DNA of 64,000 bases. Source: an uncultured Chloroflexia bacterium. GTDB taxonomy: Bacteria > Chloroflexota > Anaerolineae > Anaerolineales > UBA4823. The stretch lies in contig CAWIYB010000003.1 in the NCBI GenBank assembly GCA_963840255.1, positions 193,314 through 257,313 of the forward strand. The letters run 5' to 3'. The position numbers and the translations under genes are program-made. The stretch's first letter is position 1, and each line of letters opens with the position of its first letter. Shown here one piece after another: positions 17,155 to 22,586 of this stretch. Under the pieces are notes generated by a model, which worked only from the letters and a program-made list of their open reading frames with translations, was not told where the DNA came from and did not search any database.

Positions 17155-19179
17155 ATGAGACCAACCAGTAGAGGCAGCCCCAAGATCGGTGTGTATATAT
17201 GCCATTGTGGCACCAACATTGCCGGCATGGTGGATGTGGAAGCAGTCACCAACCATGCAGCTGCATTGGATAACGTGTTGGTTGCCCGCCATTACACCTA
17301 TATGTGTTCAGACCCAGGCCAGGCTCTTATTAAGGATGATATCCGCAGTGAGGGCCTGAATCGTATCGTGGTGGCTTCTTGCTCACCGTTGATGCATGAG
17401 ACCACATTCCGCAGGGCATGTGCCGAGGCAGGGCTCAACCCATTCTTGTTCCAAATGACCAATATCAGGGAGCACTGCTCGTGGGTGTCGGAAGACCCAG
17501 CCGGTGCGACGCAAAAAGCCATGGCGCTGGTATCTGCCGCGGTGAACAGGGTGCAGTACCAGGCGCCACTCGAGGCTCGCCAGGTGGATATGAAACAGTC
17601 TGCCGTGGTGGTGGGGGCAGGGATCGCGGGGATTGAGGCCGCCCTGCGACTGGCAGATGCGGGCAAACACGTCTACCTGGTAGAGCGGCAGCCCAGCATC
17701 GGCGGGCACATGGCGCAGCTGTACAAGACCTTCCCAACGTTAGACTGCGCCGCCTGAATTCTCACTCCCAAGATGGTGTCCGTTGGACGCCACGAAAACA
17801 TCACCCTGCTGAGCTACAGTGAAGTCGAATCAGTCTCCGGGTACGTGGGCAATTTTACCGTGCGGGTGCGCCGTAAACCACGCTATGTTGATGAAGACTC
17901 ATGTACTGGTTGTGGAACCTGCGTTGAAAAATGCCCGTGGAAAAAGATCCCATCAGAGTTTGACCTGGGGTTGGGGAACCGGGCTGCAATCTACTTCCCC
18001 TTTGCGCAGGCAGTGCCACGCGTGCCTGTGATCGATACCCAAAATTGTGCCTACTTCCAAAAGGGCAAATGCCGGGCATGTGAAAAATTCTGCCTGACCG
18101 GGTCGATCAATTTCGAGCAGAAGGAAGAGTTGCTCGATATCGATGTAGGGGCGATCGTCCTGGCAACGGGGTTCAAGGATTTTGATGCCCGCCGCATCCA
18201 ACAGTATGGCTATGGCGAGCTAGAAAACGTCGTGACCAGCATGGAGCTGGAACGGTTGATTAATACCGGTGGACCGACGATCGGTGAGGTGCGGCTCAAA
18301 GACGGCCGTAAACCGGAAAGTGTCGCCATCGTGCACTGCGTTGGCAGCCGCAATAAAGACTACCACGAATACTGTTCACGGGTGTGCTGTATGTATTCGC
18401 TCAAGCTGGCACAGCTGGTTCGCGACTATGTGGGTGCAGAAGTGCATGAGTATTATCGCGACATGCGCGCTTTCGGCAAGGGCTATGAAGCTTTCTTCGA
18501 GCGCGTGGAAAGAGCGGGGGTCCATTTCGCCCGTTTTGATCAGGAAATGGCGGACGGAGGCCTGCAAATCAGCAAGCACAACGGACAATTAAAAATATCC
18601 ACAACGGATGTATACACCGGTCAGCTGTCCGAGCTGCTGGTGGATATGGTTGTATTGAGCACCGGGGTTGAGCCCCAGTCAGATGCCGCCCACGTGGCAC
18701 AAACTTTCAGCATCAGCCGGGGTCCGGATGGATTCTTCCTGGAGAAGCATCCCAAGCTGGCACCGGTGGAAACAACCACAGATGGAGTATACCTGGCAGG
18801 CGCCTGCCAGAGCCCGAAAGACATCCCCGACAGTGTGGCGCAAGGCGGGGCGGCTGCCTCGGCAGCACTTTCTTTAATGGATGCCGGGCACGTCACCCTG
18901 GAACCGTTCACTACCTATATTGACCAGTCGAAATGCGGGGGCTGCCGCACTTGTGAAGGGTTGTGCCCATATCATGCCATCGAGATGGTTGTCCTCGATG
19001 GACGAATGGTGGCTTATGTTAATGAGGTGTTGTGTAAAGGGTGCGGAGCGTGCGCGGCGGCTTGCCCTGCCCAGGCAGCCATCCAGAATGGCTTTACCCA
19101 GGACCAAATCCTGGCTGAAATAGATGGAATCCTATCGGTTGCGAGTTTATCCGTAATGCCTCAACAGGAGGTGGTATGA
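17155..19179 (+). CDS. hdrA: HdrA-like flavoprotein with an in-frame TGA (17755-17757), a probable selenocysteine codon
   Basis: Track ORFs 17134..17757 and 17773..19179 are in the same frame, separated only by the TGA plus 5 sense codons. The joined sequence reads [34 protein letters not shown], where non-Sec HdrA proteins have Cys. Other signatures are the N-terminal VYICHCGTNIAG, the FAD fold VVVGAGIAGIEAAL and C-terminal 2x[4Fe-4S] (CGGCRTCEGLCP, CKGCGACAAACP). Start at 17155 follows GAGGAG. Confidence 0.8.
17774..17792 (+). promoter_or_regulatory. candidate bacterial SECIS hairpin for hdrA copy 1
   Basis: UGGUGUCC-GUU-GGACGCCA, an 8-bp stem that includes one G-U pair. It starts 17 nt after the UGA and is identical in sequence in the paralog. 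Confidence 0.5.
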
Positions 19180-22100
19180 ACCTCTCCAAGATAAAGACGG
19201 GAGTCTACATCTGCCACTGCGGGACAAACATCGCCGGAAAAGTGGATGTTAAAGCCGTAGTGGAATTTGCCCAGACGCTTGATGGAGTCGTGCTGGCACG
19301 CGATTACACTTACATGTGTTCAGACCCAGGTCAGGATTTGATCAAGCAGGATATTCGTGAACAGGGACTGAACCGGGTGGTGGTAGCTTCTTGTACGCCC
19401 CTGATGCACGAACCGACTTTCCGCAGGGCATGCCGGGAAGGGGGATTGAACCCGTTCTTCTTCCAGATGGCAAATATCCGCGAGCATTGCTCGTGGGTTG
19501 TAGATGACCCCGGGATGGCAACAGATAAAGCCAAGCACATGGTCAGCGCAGCGGTCAGCCGAGTTCACCACCACCGCCCCCTGAACATGCGCTCAGTGGA
19601 TATGGACCAAAGTGCGCTGGTGGTGGGTGGGGGCATCGCCGGGATTGAAGCTGCCCTTCGCCTGGCAGATGCCGGCAAGAAGGTATACATGGTGGAGCGT
19701 GAGCCAAATATCGGTGGGCACATGGCTCAACTTTATAAGACATTTCCCACTCTAGACTGTGCAGCCTGAATACTTACACCGAAAATGGTGTCCGTTGGAC
19801 GCCACGAAAACATCAGCCTGCTGAGCTACAGTGAAGTTGAAAATATTTCCGGGTACGTGGGCAACTACCAGGTGCGGGTGCGCCGAAAGGCACGCTTTGT
19901 GGATGAAAGCCAATGCACCGGCTGTGGGAAGTGCGCTGACGTCTGCCCAGTGGATGTGATAAACACTTTTGACAAAGGGTTGAGCACCCGTAAAGCCACC
20001 TACCGTAATTCAGCCCAGGCAGTGCCCGGCGCGTTCGTGATCGAGAAACGCGGCATCGCACCCTGCCGGGCTGCCTGCCCCACCGACCAGCGCGCCCAGG
20101 GATACATTGCCCTGATCAAACAAAAGCGCTACGCGGATGCTTATTGGGCCATCCGGCGGGAGCATCCATTCCCTTCGGTGTGCGGGCGGGTATGCAACCG
20201 GCGCTGTGAGGAGCAATGCAGCCGGGGCTTGTATGACGAACCGGTAAGTATCATGAAGCTGAAGTGGTTCGTCGCCGATTGGGCATATGAACACCGGGAT
20301 GAGCTGCCCAACATGCGCGATAAGTCATTGGTGGGCACGCCGTTCTCCCACGACCCAACTCCAACGGGCAAGAAAGTCGCCATCATCGGTGCAGGACCGG
20401 CGGGAATGACGGCAGCCTTGGACCTGGTGCGCATCGGTCACCAGGCAACGGTATTTGATTCACTACCCATCGCGGGCGGGATGATGCGGGTGGGTATCCC
20501 ACCGCACCGCCTGCCGTACGACCGCCTGGATTGGGAAATCCAGCAAATTGTGGATGAAGGCGTTGAGATGAAGTTAAGCACGCGGGTGTACGACATCCCC
20601 GGCTTGTTTACCAAAGGCTATAACGCCGTGGTCATCGCAACCGGCGCCCACAGTGCCTGGAAGCTGAACATCCCCGGCACCGAGCACCCCGATAACTGGC
20701 TGAGCCTGGATTTACTTCGCAGGGCGTGCCTGGGGGAGAAAATTGACCTGAGTGGGCGCGACATTGCCGTGATCGGGGCGGGGGATGTCGCCCTTGATGC
20801 AGCACGAGTATCCGTCAGGCTGGGAAGCCCTAAGGTAAAAATAGTGTGCCGCGGTATGCGTGCCTCATTCAATGAGCTCGACGAAGCAAATAAGGAAGGG
20901 GTGGAAATCATCCGCAACCGGGTGTTCAAGGAAGTGGTCATCCGGGAGAATAAAATTATTGGCATCCGCTGCGTGGAAGCCAAGGTGGGGGCGATCGTCA
21001 ATGGTAAACGTCAGGTGGAGGAGATTCCCGGCACCGACCATGTGATCCCATGTGACCTGGTGATCTGGGCAGTCGGGCAGCAGCCAGACTTCAGCTTCTT
21101 ACCAGAAGGCTCGCACATCCGCAAGCTCAGCTCCATGGGACTCGAGACGGATGATGAGATGATGACCAGCATGCCGGGAGTATTTGTCGCGGGTGATGTA
21201 CGCCGGGGAACCACCTTCTTTGTGGTGGACGCAATCGGCGAAGGTCACCACGTGGCAAGGTGCATCGACCGATTCCTGCGTGGACCAGAAGGGATTCAGG
21301 AACCACCCAGGCTACCCACGGCCACCTTTACGAAAGACGAAGTGGGTAAATTGATGGAGACCGGTTGGGCGGCGGAGAACCCACGGGCTAAAACTCGCAC
21401 CATCCCAGCAGAAGAACGAGTGAACAATTTTAAGGAAGTCGACCTGACGCTAAGCGAAGAAGAGGCACTTGCTGAAGCGGAGCGGTGTTTACGGTGCGGC
21501 ATTTGTTCGGAATGCCTTGAATGCCTGTCAGCGTGCGAGCGCGGGGCGATTGACCATGACATGAAAGACAGCATCCTTGACTTGAAGGTAGGTACGATCG
21601 TCCTGGCAACCGGTTTCAAGGATTTTGATCCATCACGGATCCCCGAGCTGGGCTACGGTCAATTGGAAAATGTGCTCACCTCGATGGAATTCGAGCGCTT
21701 GATCAATGCCAGCGGTCCCACCAGTGGCAAGGTGATGCTTAAAAATGGCGAGGCACCAACAAAGGTCGCTATTGTGCATTGCGTTGGCAGCCGGGACGAT
21801 AAATACAATGAATACTGCTCGCGAGCGTGCTGCATGTACTCGCTTAAACTGGCTCAGCTGGTGCACGATTATATGGGTGCCGAAGTACACGAAATCTACA
21901 GAGATATGCGCACATTCGGTAAAGATTATGAAGAGTTTTATAACCGCACACGCAGCAAAGGGGTTAATTTCTACCACGGGCGGGTGAAAAGCATCAAAGC
22001 GCAGGACGGGCAGCTGGTGGTCAAATGGGACGAGAGCTTCTTCAACCAGCCTGACCACATCGAGGTGGATATGGTTATCCTTTCCACCGGTTTCGAAGCC

Positions 22101-22586
22101 CAGGCGGATGCCGCCAAAGTGGCGAGCATGTTCGGAGTCAGCCGCAGTCCTGATGGGTTCTTCCTTGAGAAGCACCCCAAGCTGGCACCGGTGGAGACCT
22201 CGACGGAGGGCATTTATATCGCCGGGGCCTGCCAAAGCCCCAAGGATATCCCTGATAGTGTAGCCCAAGCCGGGGGTGCAGCCGCAGCAGCCCTATCCCT
22301 GCTCGACCAGGGGACGATTGCACTTGACCCGTCGGTGGCTTCGGTGAACCTGCTGCGCTGCGCAGGCTGCGGCTTATGTGTCAATGCCTGCCCGTACAGC
22401 GCCATCGAGTTGAAGGAGAGTGTAGCTTCGGTGAATACCTACCTGTGTAAAGGCTGCGGCACCTGCGCCTCAACCTGTCGTGACAAAGCCATCACCTTGA
22501 TCCATTTCGATGACTCACAAATCGTCAACGAGATGATCGGCGCGCTGGCTTTTGAACCGGTTGTTCCCGGGATCCTCAATCAATAG
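19176..22586 (+). CDS. HdrA-like flavoprotein with an in-frame TGA (19767-19769) and an inserted GltD/NfnB-like NAD(P)H-FAD module
   Basis: Track ORFs 19176..19769 and 19785..22586 share a frame, and the junction reads [22 protein letters not shown]. An insertion (about 20055-21480) carries GRVCNRRCEEQC, KKVAIIGAGPAGMTAALDL, RDIAVIGAGDVALDAARV and PGVFVAGDV, resembling the glutamate synthase small subunit. The start overlaps the upstream stop codon (ATGA). Confidence 0.8.
19786..19804 (+). promoter_or_regulatory. candidate bacterial SECIS hairpin for hdrA copy 2
   Basis: The same UGGUGUCC-GUU-GGACGCCA hairpin, also 17 nt after the UGA. Confidence 0.5.

Follow-up and report, generated by a model that had tools for sequence, protein, structure and literature searches.

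Two tandem HdrA genes interrupted by UGA codons

The window analysed here, a stretch of 64,000 nucleotides from an uncultured Chloroflexia bacterium (contig CAWIYB010000003.1, positions 193,314 to 257,313), encompasses two adjacent genes for flavoproteins of the HdrA family, each of which is interrupted by an in-frame UGA codon that is predicted to encode selenocysteine (Sec). The first of these genes, hdrA1 (17155-19179, forward strand), comprises 674 codons including the single in-frame UGA and encodes an HdrA-type flavoprotein, as indicated by phmmer, Pfam and NCBIfam; the second, hdrA2 (19176-22586, forward strand), comprises 1136 codons, again including one in-frame UGA, and has the Pfam domains of the HdrL type, that is, HdrA with an NfnB/GltD-like insertion. 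A GAGGAG ribosome-binding site is located 9 nucleotides (nt) upstream of the hdrA1 ATG, and the stop codon of hdrA1 and the ATG of hdrA2 share nucleotides in the ATGA at 19176-19179, an arrangement suggestive of translational coupling. The predicted Sec codon of hdrA1 is codon 201 (17755-17757, forward strand), placed by alignment with Cys197 of HdrA in the structure 5ODC, and that of hdrA2 is codon 198 (19767-19769, forward strand), where the motif and the alignment position are the same as in hdrA1.

The listing of open reading frames (ORFs) cuts both genes at the TGA, yielding the fragments 17134-17757 and 17773-19179 for hdrA1, and 19176-19769 and 19785-22586 for hdrA2. As was pointed out in the preliminary description of this locus, which was made from the sequence alone, the two halves of each gene are in the same frame; the ORF coordinates and the read-through translation bear this out, and on read-through both genes carry the same peptide motif around the TGA. 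The distance from the TGA to the next ATG is 18 nt in both cases. In terms of annotation, the four called ORF fragments would thus become two merged selenoprotein genes.

Protein identity and the residue at the UGA

The product of hdrA1 aligns end to end (residues 8-660; phmmer E=4.8e-212) with chain A of 5ODC, the HdrA subunit of the methanogen HdrABC-MvhAGD complexes for which a structure has been solved, and matches 8RVU with E=8e-213. Both Pfam and NCBIfam yield HdrA-type matches for the HdrA products, with the domains of the family matched over their full length, namely the N-terminal Fe-S domain, the thioredoxin-reductase-like domain that binds flavin adenine dinucleotide (FAD), and the inserted and C-terminal ferredoxin domains. 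In this alignment, the TGA of hdrA1 coincides with Cys197 of 5ODC HdrA within the sequence TFPTNDCSI-C-ILAPKMV, and paralogues with a cysteine in the corresponding motif, CSA-C-ILTPKM, are present in related loci. In the solved complex, Cys197 of one protomer completes the N-terminal [4Fe-4S] cluster of the other as its fourth ligand (PMC9012536). The UGA is thus at the position of a cluster ligand contributed across the subunit interface, along the route by which electrons pass from the bifurcating FAD towards ferredoxin. The earlier designation of this position as the catalytic cysteine was therefore right in that the TGA aligns with a conserved Cys of the Cys-containing homologues and imprecise in the word catalytic, given that Cys197 is a cluster ligand (PMC9012536).

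The HdrA2 protein contains about 500 amino acids on top of the same HdrA core. The NfnB/GltD-like insertion (20058-21245, forward strand) interrupts the inserted ferredoxin domain and consists of a Fer4_20 domain (amino acids 295-373) and a second FAD/NAD(P)-binding Pyr_redox_2 domain (amino acids 399-690). It matches large subunits of NfnA/NfnI and small subunits of glutamate synthase (GltD) with E values from 9e-75 to 2e-37, including NfnA in 9n5u (E=9e-75) and NfnI in 5jca (E=3e-53) among the PDB entries. This is the published HdrL, or HdrA-NfnB, architecture (PMC2702500, PMC5947623, PMC9012536).

A hairpin downstream of each UGA

Each of the two UGA codons is followed by a candidate selenocysteine insertion sequence (SECIS). 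Hairpin 1 (17774-17792, forward strand) is formed by the stem strands UGGUGUCC (17774-17781) and GGACGCCA (17785-17792) around the loop GUU (17782-17784), and hairpin 2 (19786-19804, forward strand) has the same sequence. In RNAfold predictions for the region downstream of each TGA, UGGUGUCC-GUU-GGACGCCA folds as an 8-bp hairpin in both the minimum free energy (MFE) and the centroid structures of both copies, starting 17 nt after the UGA and with the loop 24 nt after it.

The model of the bacterial SECIS (bSECIS) includes a stem of 4-16 bp, a loop of 3-9 nt with G at position 1 or 2, usually followed by G or U, a UGA-to-apical-loop spacing of 16-37 nt, and an MFE of -7.5 kcal/mol or lower (PMC13188914 Fig. 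2). Both copies in the window combine an 8-bp stem with a 3-nt loop, G-U-U, at a spacing of 24 nt (17758-17781 and 19770-19793), and the energy is -11.9 kcal/mol for a 42-nt segment that holds only the hairpin. If the closing C-G pair opens, the resulting loop C-G-U-U-G is an exact fit to the N1-G-[G/U]-N-N2 of the model. The presence of a GU-containing apical loop at the position of a bacterial SECIS, which the preliminary description noted, is thus upheld by the folding and by the spacing. A search of the whole window against Rfam at the gathering threshold, and of 17700-19900 at E<=10, returned no SECIS-like family, as is to be expected because bacterial SECIS elements have no common sequence.

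Nucleotide identity between the paralogues

The initial case for selection on RNA structure was built on the comparison of the two paralogues. The five codons immediately 3' of the TGA indeed all differ at their third positions between hdrA1 and hdrA2 (ATT/ATA, CTC/CTT, ACT/ACA, CCC/CCG and AAG/AAA), as originally described, and are followed by the 30-nt block ATGGTGTCCGTTGGACGCCACGAAAACATC, of which the window contains exactly two copies, at 17773 and 19785 (100 shuffles gave no match). The block had been given as 10 identical codons; these 30 nt are identical, and the actual extent of the similarity is greater, with 31 identical nt, one mismatch, and another 21 identical nt. No other identical run between the paralogues is as long as either of these; otherwise the two genes are 64% identical at the nucleotide level, and where they share an amino acid, the codon is the same in only about half of the cases. 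In 20,000 permutations, 15 identical degenerate codons in a row (as at 17776-17823) arose 78 times, so that the comparison of the paralogues alone is significant, not overwhelming: it is suggestive, not decisive.

Furthermore, the hairpin accounts for only 19 of the approximately 53 near-identical nucleotides. The identical nucleotides outside it, CACGAAAACATCA and CCTGCTGAGCTACAGT, comprise codons (CAC GAA AAC ATC ... CTG CTG AGC TAC) that are mostly the commonest in the clade and are variable in orthologues, and the HdrA2 orthologue of locus L200 has the downstream stretch without a single difference, so that this stretch is conserved by descent. Codon preference and descent explain the identity beyond the hairpin, which is not evidence of RNA structure. 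The claim of direct evidence for selection on RNA structure accordingly holds for the hairpin, where it is backed by the comparative data discussed below, and does not hold for the rest of the identical block.

Conservation across genomes

The pattern D-C-x-x-TGA-I-L-x-P-K-M/L was sought in 185,579 species-representative genomes, which yielded at least 120 loci; among the matches listed, each of the 122 sites belongs to an HdrA gene, and all have the TGA in the same place. These sites come from Desulfobacterota, Chloroflexota (Anaerolineae, Dehalococcoidia and Thermoflexia), Bacillota, Planctomycetota, Calditrichota, Zixibacteria and others, as well as Asgard archaea. A scan of metagenomes that was restricted to the peptide motif of the window's clade added at least 120 loci with at least 137 homologous sites, and every match listed is an HdrA TGA site. 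Altogether, the HdrA TGA recurs in more than 240 independent assemblies. The nearest loci by BLAST among 240 are at best 78-81% identical to the window; the closest named relatives among the loci listed are Chloroflexia/Anaerolineales metagenome-assembled genomes (L010, L114 and L051). The tandem arrangement of a short and then a long Sec-HdrA gene is found in at least 16 of the 120 metagenome loci, for example L147, L154, L192 and L208, in which the C-terminal parts of the long gene are 931-948 amino acids in length, compared with 933 in the window.

This recurrence bears directly on the trivial explanation that the TGA is a sequencing or assembly error for TGC or TGT. A single-base difference would suffice for such an error, and nothing specific speaks in its favor beyond that, whereas the TGA recurs in the two paralogues and in independent assemblies by the hundred, and is accompanied by the hairpin, which true Cys paralogues do not have. 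The refuting condition that the preliminary description had named in this regard is thus answered in its favor; the recurrence rules the error out, and we consider its residual probability negligible.

Nearly all bacterial sites possess a hairpin of 6-8 bp with a G-rich loop, centred 27-33 nt after the UGA, the sequence of the stem differing by clade. The types include GGAUGCC-GGUC-GGCAUCC, CUGGUCG-AGGU-CGGCCGG, GAGGCC-GGUC-GGUCUC, GACGC-GGC-GCGUC and UGGCCUC-GGU-GAGGUCA, in addition to the type of the window, UGGUGUCC-GUU-GGACGCCA. A single consensus structure for 124 Sec-HdrA sites was attempted and dropped because both the register and the sequence of the hairpin vary by clade; pairs were counted per clade instead.

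The strongest argument comes from synonymous positions in 99 unique sites of the window's clade that were selected at the amino acid level, as M-x-S-V-G. In this set, the degenerate codons of the stem are nearly fixed (GTG in 94 of 94, TCC in 97 of 99, GGA in 97 of 99 and CGC in 76 of 78; entropy 0-0.17 bit), whereas the valine codon in the loop varies (GTG/GTT/GTC/GTA = 56/32/9/2; 1.42 bit), as do the flanking four- and six-fold degenerate codons (1.1-2.2 bit). Shared ancestry cannot explain this difference between stem and flanks because it is seen within the same sequences.

Base pairing is maintained where the stem does vary. The U23.G35 pair is replaced by C-G in 3 sequences and by U-A in 19, and G22-C36 is replaced by A-U in two sequences, one of the two being the HdrA2 orthologue from the closest tandem relative, L200; in the Dehalococcoidia-type hairpin, there are several double changes (C-G to A-U, U-A to C-G, and C-G to G-C). 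Of the paired cells, 97.7% are complementary in register, compared with 28-61% when the 3' partner is slid by 1-3 columns. The G28 and U29 of the loop are invariant in 97 related sites, and the third loop base can be any of the four nucleotides. The set of the window's clade that was used to count pairs was selected on TCCGTNGGA, the central 9 nt, which makes columns 25-27 and 31-33 invariant by construction, and the unbiased conservation figures are those of the 99 sites selected by amino acid sequence.

The cysteine-containing paralogues provide a natural control. Five Cys-HdrA paralogues from the same contigs, with the nearly identical peptide CSA-C-ILTPKMTSVGSH, use varied codons in this region and do not fold into the hairpin (median MFE -5.5 kcal/mol, against -11.9 kcal/mol for 240 Sec sites; Mann-Whitney p=9e-5). 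The hairpin, therefore, goes with the UGA and not with the protein sequence.

Three Sec-HdrA sites from Asgard archaea (L029, L083 and L089) have no hairpin (MFE -5 to -7 kcal/mol); the SECIS of their lineage is reported to lie in the 3' untranslated region (PMC4989117, PMC11227280). As a separate observation, locus L006 (JAPUUO010000083.1), which is labelled Bathyarchaeota, encodes a Sec-HdrA with a typical bacterial in-frame SECIS hairpin, CUGGUCG-AGGU-CGGCCGG, that does not differ from the deltaproteobacterial type, which may reflect mis-binning or lateral transfer.

So could the identity of the two paralogues in the window be due to something other than selection on RNA, even if Sec is inserted? 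Recent gene conversion or codon preference comes to mind given that the identical runs of 31 and 21 nt reach well past the 19-nt hairpin, that the additional identical codons are mostly the commonest in the clade, and that the nearest HdrA2 orthologues (L175 and L200) carry an ACG...CGU variant of the stem while the HdrA2 of the window matches HdrA1. A short conversion tract from hdrA1 to hdrA2 is hinted at by the latter observation, but is unnecessary to account for the data. The stem is kept in the 99 unique sites while neighbouring synonymous sites vary, and local conversion in one genome cannot produce this pattern because the sites come from different organisms; furthermore, compensatory changes keep the pairing, the Cys paralogues lose the hairpin, and the downstream stretch is shared with the L200 orthologue by descent. 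In our judgment, this explanation is quite unlikely, even though among the alternatives to selection acting on the hairpin of a Sec codon it is the one to which we would give the most credence.

A different alternative is that the TGAs are real stops, such that the genes are pseudogenes or else encode split proteins that re-initiate at the ATG 18 nt downstream, with the hairpin promoting termination-reinitiation. The ATG after each TGA, where gene callers split the genes, and the use of TGA as a normal stop elsewhere in the window are compatible with this scenario. However, the TGA always replaces one and the same conserved cysteine, Cys197, at more than 240 sites in many phyla, many clades have CTG (Leu), not ATG, at the supposed restart, and no Shine-Dalgarno sequence precedes the ATG. 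Furthermore, loss of residue 197 would delete a cluster ligand, the position and the loop of the hairpin fit the bSECIS model, and HdrA is an established selenoprotein family (PMC1794560). Termination at these codons thus appears very improbable.

Probable selenocysteine decoding in the host

A scan of the window for in-frame TGAs flanked by long open frames identified three credible sites, all of which are Cys positions of known selenoprotein families. In addition to the two HdrA genes, the third site is in a gene for a membrane-anchored DsbA/thioredoxin-like protein (28597-29436, reverse strand; TGA at 29079-29077; NCBIfam NF041057). The motif EFSDYQ-TGA-PYCGRF corresponds to a UxxC redox motif, U-P-Y-C, and the product matches NF041057, the "Rcas_1661 family thioredoxin-like (seleno)lipoprotein", with E=1.4e-52 and 178.7 bits, just below the cut-off of 190. 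The hairpin CUGACG-CGGGU-CGUCAG, 25-41 nt past this UGA, is a candidate SECIS. This is probably a third selenoprotein gene, and it points to Sec decoding in this organism; DsbA-like UxxC selenoproteins have already been catalogued, and the use of Sec is documented in Chloroflexota (PMC13582414). Three merged selenoprotein genes would mark the organism as a Sec user.

These data also address the possibility that the UGA is read by a near-cognate tRNA (for Cys or Trp) or is reassigned, in either case without Sec machinery, a view to which the failure to see such machinery in the window lends some support. TGA serves as an ordinary stop in 9 of the 27 family-supported genes of the window, including hdrA1 itself, which excludes a global reassignment of UGA. 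The restriction of credible in-frame TGAs to the three Cys positions of known selenoprotein families, together with the bSECIS-type hairpin, argues against near-cognate decoding as well, so that we regard this alternative as having hardly any likelihood, less than that of genuine termination and somewhat more than that of a sequence error.

The interpretation of hdrA1 and hdrA2 as genes for full-length selenoproteins has to be weighed against several considerations, all of which count to its disadvantage. None of selA, selB, selD and the gene for tRNA-Sec is located within the 64-kb window; ARAGORN detected no tRNA-Sec in the window or in the related loci, which are short and hence uninformative in this respect. 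In the clade of the window itself, the majority of stem pairs are invariant; direct covariation is limited to a few variants, and it is the contrast at synonymous sites that weighs most. For the 70-nt fold as a whole, the z-score does not reach significance, as is to be anticipated with so short a hairpin. In contrast to the SECIS of Escherichia coli fdhF, the hairpin closes on a triloop and lacks a bulged U, and for this reason its binding by SelB is a prediction from the consensus model. Likewise, the incorporation of Sec is predicted from sequence comparison, and both the dimers discussed below and the function of the complex are proposed by homology.

Even with these points taken into account, the hypothesis that hdrA1 and hdrA2 encode two full-length HdrA-family selenoproteins, in which the UGA specifies Sec and is followed by a bacterial SECIS hairpin under selection for RNA structure, appears to accommodate the available facts in the simplest manner, and we estimate its probability at roughly 0.9. 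The central proposal of the preliminary description is thereby supported, and much better so by the comparative data than by the two paralogues alone. Under this hypothesis, the segment of mRNA 17-37 nt beyond the UGA would be folded as the 8-bp hairpin by the time a ribosome arrives at that codon (17755 or 19767), and would present an apical loop GUU or, with the closing pair open, C-GUU-G. In bacteria, the bSECIS is bound by the complex SelB.GTP.Sec-tRNA(Sec), which brings Sec into the A site where release factor 2 would otherwise act. Delivery of Sec by SelB at the UGAs of hdrA1 and hdrA2 would follow the same route, and the inserted Sec, at the Cys197 position of the thioredoxin-reductase-like domain, would ligate the N-terminal [4Fe-4S] cluster of the partner protomer. 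The hairpin lies within the codons for M-V-S-V-G-R-H, seven codons that would be subject to protein and RNA constraints at once, and the third positions of the stem would be frozen because of this double constraint.

If so, this is an unusually clean natural case of overlapping protein and RNA constraint: third positions are fixed in the stem yet free to vary in the loop, and Cys paralogues have lost the hairpin. The pattern scans, in turn, show a distribution of Sec at residue 197 of HdrA among bacterial phyla that is far wider than early surveys had listed. The value of these findings is mainly in annotation and in the illustration of this double constraint, and no new question is opened, given that selenoproteins of the HdrA, HdrL and DsbA-like kinds are established, as is the model of the bacterial SECIS.

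Gene neighbourhood and a proposed complex

Directly 3' of hdrA2 lies a gene for an MvhD/FlpD-domain protein fused to Fe-S domains (FlxD-like; 22552-24015, forward strand; Pfam FlpD E=1.9e-47; NCBIfam VhuD/HdrA2 C-terminal region), the usual partner of HdrA and HdrL. Sec was considered for this mvhD-like gene and rejected given that its ORF is uninterrupted. The next gene encodes an Fe-S protein of the sulfhydrogenase beta/AsrA-like type (FlxB/C-like; 23862-25013, forward strand; Pfam Fer4_22; NCBIfam HydB/ShyB/AsrA, E about 1e-47, from amino acid 54); its ORF overlaps the preceding one by 154 nt, and the true start is therefore probably downstream of 23862. It is followed by a gene for a FAD/NAD(P)-binding [2Fe-2S] protein resembling sulfhydrogenase gamma (HydG), AsrB and PyrK (FlxA-like; 25017-25868, forward strand; Pfam NAD_binding_1 and DHODB_Fe-S_bind; NCBIfam). 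The operon ends at 25868, after which an EamA transporter gene is located. No hdrB or hdrC gene (for a CCG-domain protein) was found between 13167 and 27270, and the cluster encodes no HdrBC for the high-potential acceptor side.

By analogy with characterized systems, this cluster looks like one for a cytoplasmic NAD(P)H-linked, flavin-based electron-bifurcating or confurcating complex of the Flx/HdrL type. Within it, HdrA1 and HdrA2 would probably form homo- or heterodimers with selenolate-ligated clusters, a proposal prompted by the retention of both the N-terminal domain and the Sec in each paralogue. A more specific version posits an obligate HdrA1-HdrA2 heterodimer with reciprocal Sec ligation of the N-terminal [4Fe-4S] clusters as the core of an HdrBC-less, NAD(P)H-linked Flx/HdrL bifurcating complex that would be specific to an uncultured Chloroflexota lineage and whose acceptor might not be a heterodisulfide; this version we consider speculative and rather unlikely.

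Other features of the window are mentioned here for completeness. Three tandem aldo/keto reductase paralogues (338, 327 and 325 amino acids; 13167-16637, forward strand) are located about 520 nt upstream of hdrA1. At 57568-60363 (forward strand), two genes encode a group-1-type [NiFe] hydrogenase, one for its small and one for its large subunit; the large-subunit gene is uninterrupted, with Cys, not Sec, in the region of the C-terminal motif, and its product matches best the models of the Ni/Fe-hydrogenase large subunit, and also NiFeSe models, all below the curated cut-off. At about 40000-48000, the G+C content falls from about 57% to 35-45%; this stretch, which may be a horizontally acquired island, contains a DEAD/DEAH helicase-like gene (43361-45499, reverse strand) and a gene with a thermonuclease-like domain (47354-49267). 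The regions 29765-30025 and 30338-30874 hold a cluster of short tandem repeats (an 8-nt unit repeated 8 times, a 16/32-nt unit, and the 20-nt unit ACCGATACAGGAGGGCACTG repeated 4.7 times) and, after it, an ORF with the sequence PNHVHGIIVI, which may resemble the tyrosine transposases associated with IS200/REP elements.

Comparison with known systems

Compared with the SECIS of E. coli fdhF and the bSECISearch consensus, the hairpins in the window share the stem-loop just 3' of the UGA, with G and then U in the loop, and differ from fdhF in that eight base pairs stack without interruption under a 3-nt loop, with no bulged U and no lower stem; many other HdrA clades have a GGUC tetraloop like that of fdhF.

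At the level of gene organization, the cluster is reminiscent of FlxABCD-HdrABC, the NADH dehydrogenase/heterodisulfide reductase of Desulfovibrio, in which genes for MvhD-like, HydB-like Fe-S and HydG/AsrB-like FAD/NAD(P) proteins are likewise located beside HdrA. Unlike the Flx-Hdr cluster, that in the window is devoid of HdrB/HdrC (CCG-domain) genes, which places it outside this class, and it has two HdrA-type genes, one with its own NfnB module, and a different gene order.

The HdrA2 protein resembles HdrL of Desulfobacterium autotrophicum and Syntrophobacter fumaroxidans and the HdrA-NfnB fusions of the anaerobic methanotrophic archaea ANME-1, all of which have the same NfnB/GltD-like insertion in the inserted ferredoxin domain (PMC2702500, PMC5947623, PMC9012536); the likeness to deltaproteobacterial HdrL is one of architecture. 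As in HdrL loci, an mvhD gene is co-located (22552-24015), and the window differs from these loci in the order of the genes, hdrA then hdrL and then Flx-like genes, with no adjacent hdrBC, dsr or fdh. Sec is present in HdrL1 and HdrL3 of D. autotrophicum, where there is also a tandem hdrL/hdrA locus with mvhD (PMC2702500). The HdrA-NfnB fusions of ANME-1 are known as HdrA9-11, and HdrA heterodimers of tandem paralogues, organised around Cys197, have been discussed for ANME archaea (PMC9012536).

Also among the known systems closest to the two genes are the Sec-HdrA proteins of Deltaproteobacteria, Clostridia and Methanococcales, which belong to the same family and have Sec at the same position (Zhang et al. 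2006, PMC1794560; PMC13188914). HdrA has been recognised as a bacterial selenoprotein family since at least 2006, and hdrA-hdrA tandems in bacterial operons were noted as well (PMC1794560). As in the window, the SECIS of bacterial Sec-HdrA lies in the reading frame just after the UGA. The window differs from the known cases in that its host belongs to an uncultured Chloroflexota-like lineage, that its stem sequence and GUN triloop are clade-specific, and that its operon has no FrhA, FrhG or GlpC genes. Thus, Sec-HdrA, tandem hdrA genes and Sec-HdrL have all been published already, and the two genes described here join established company.

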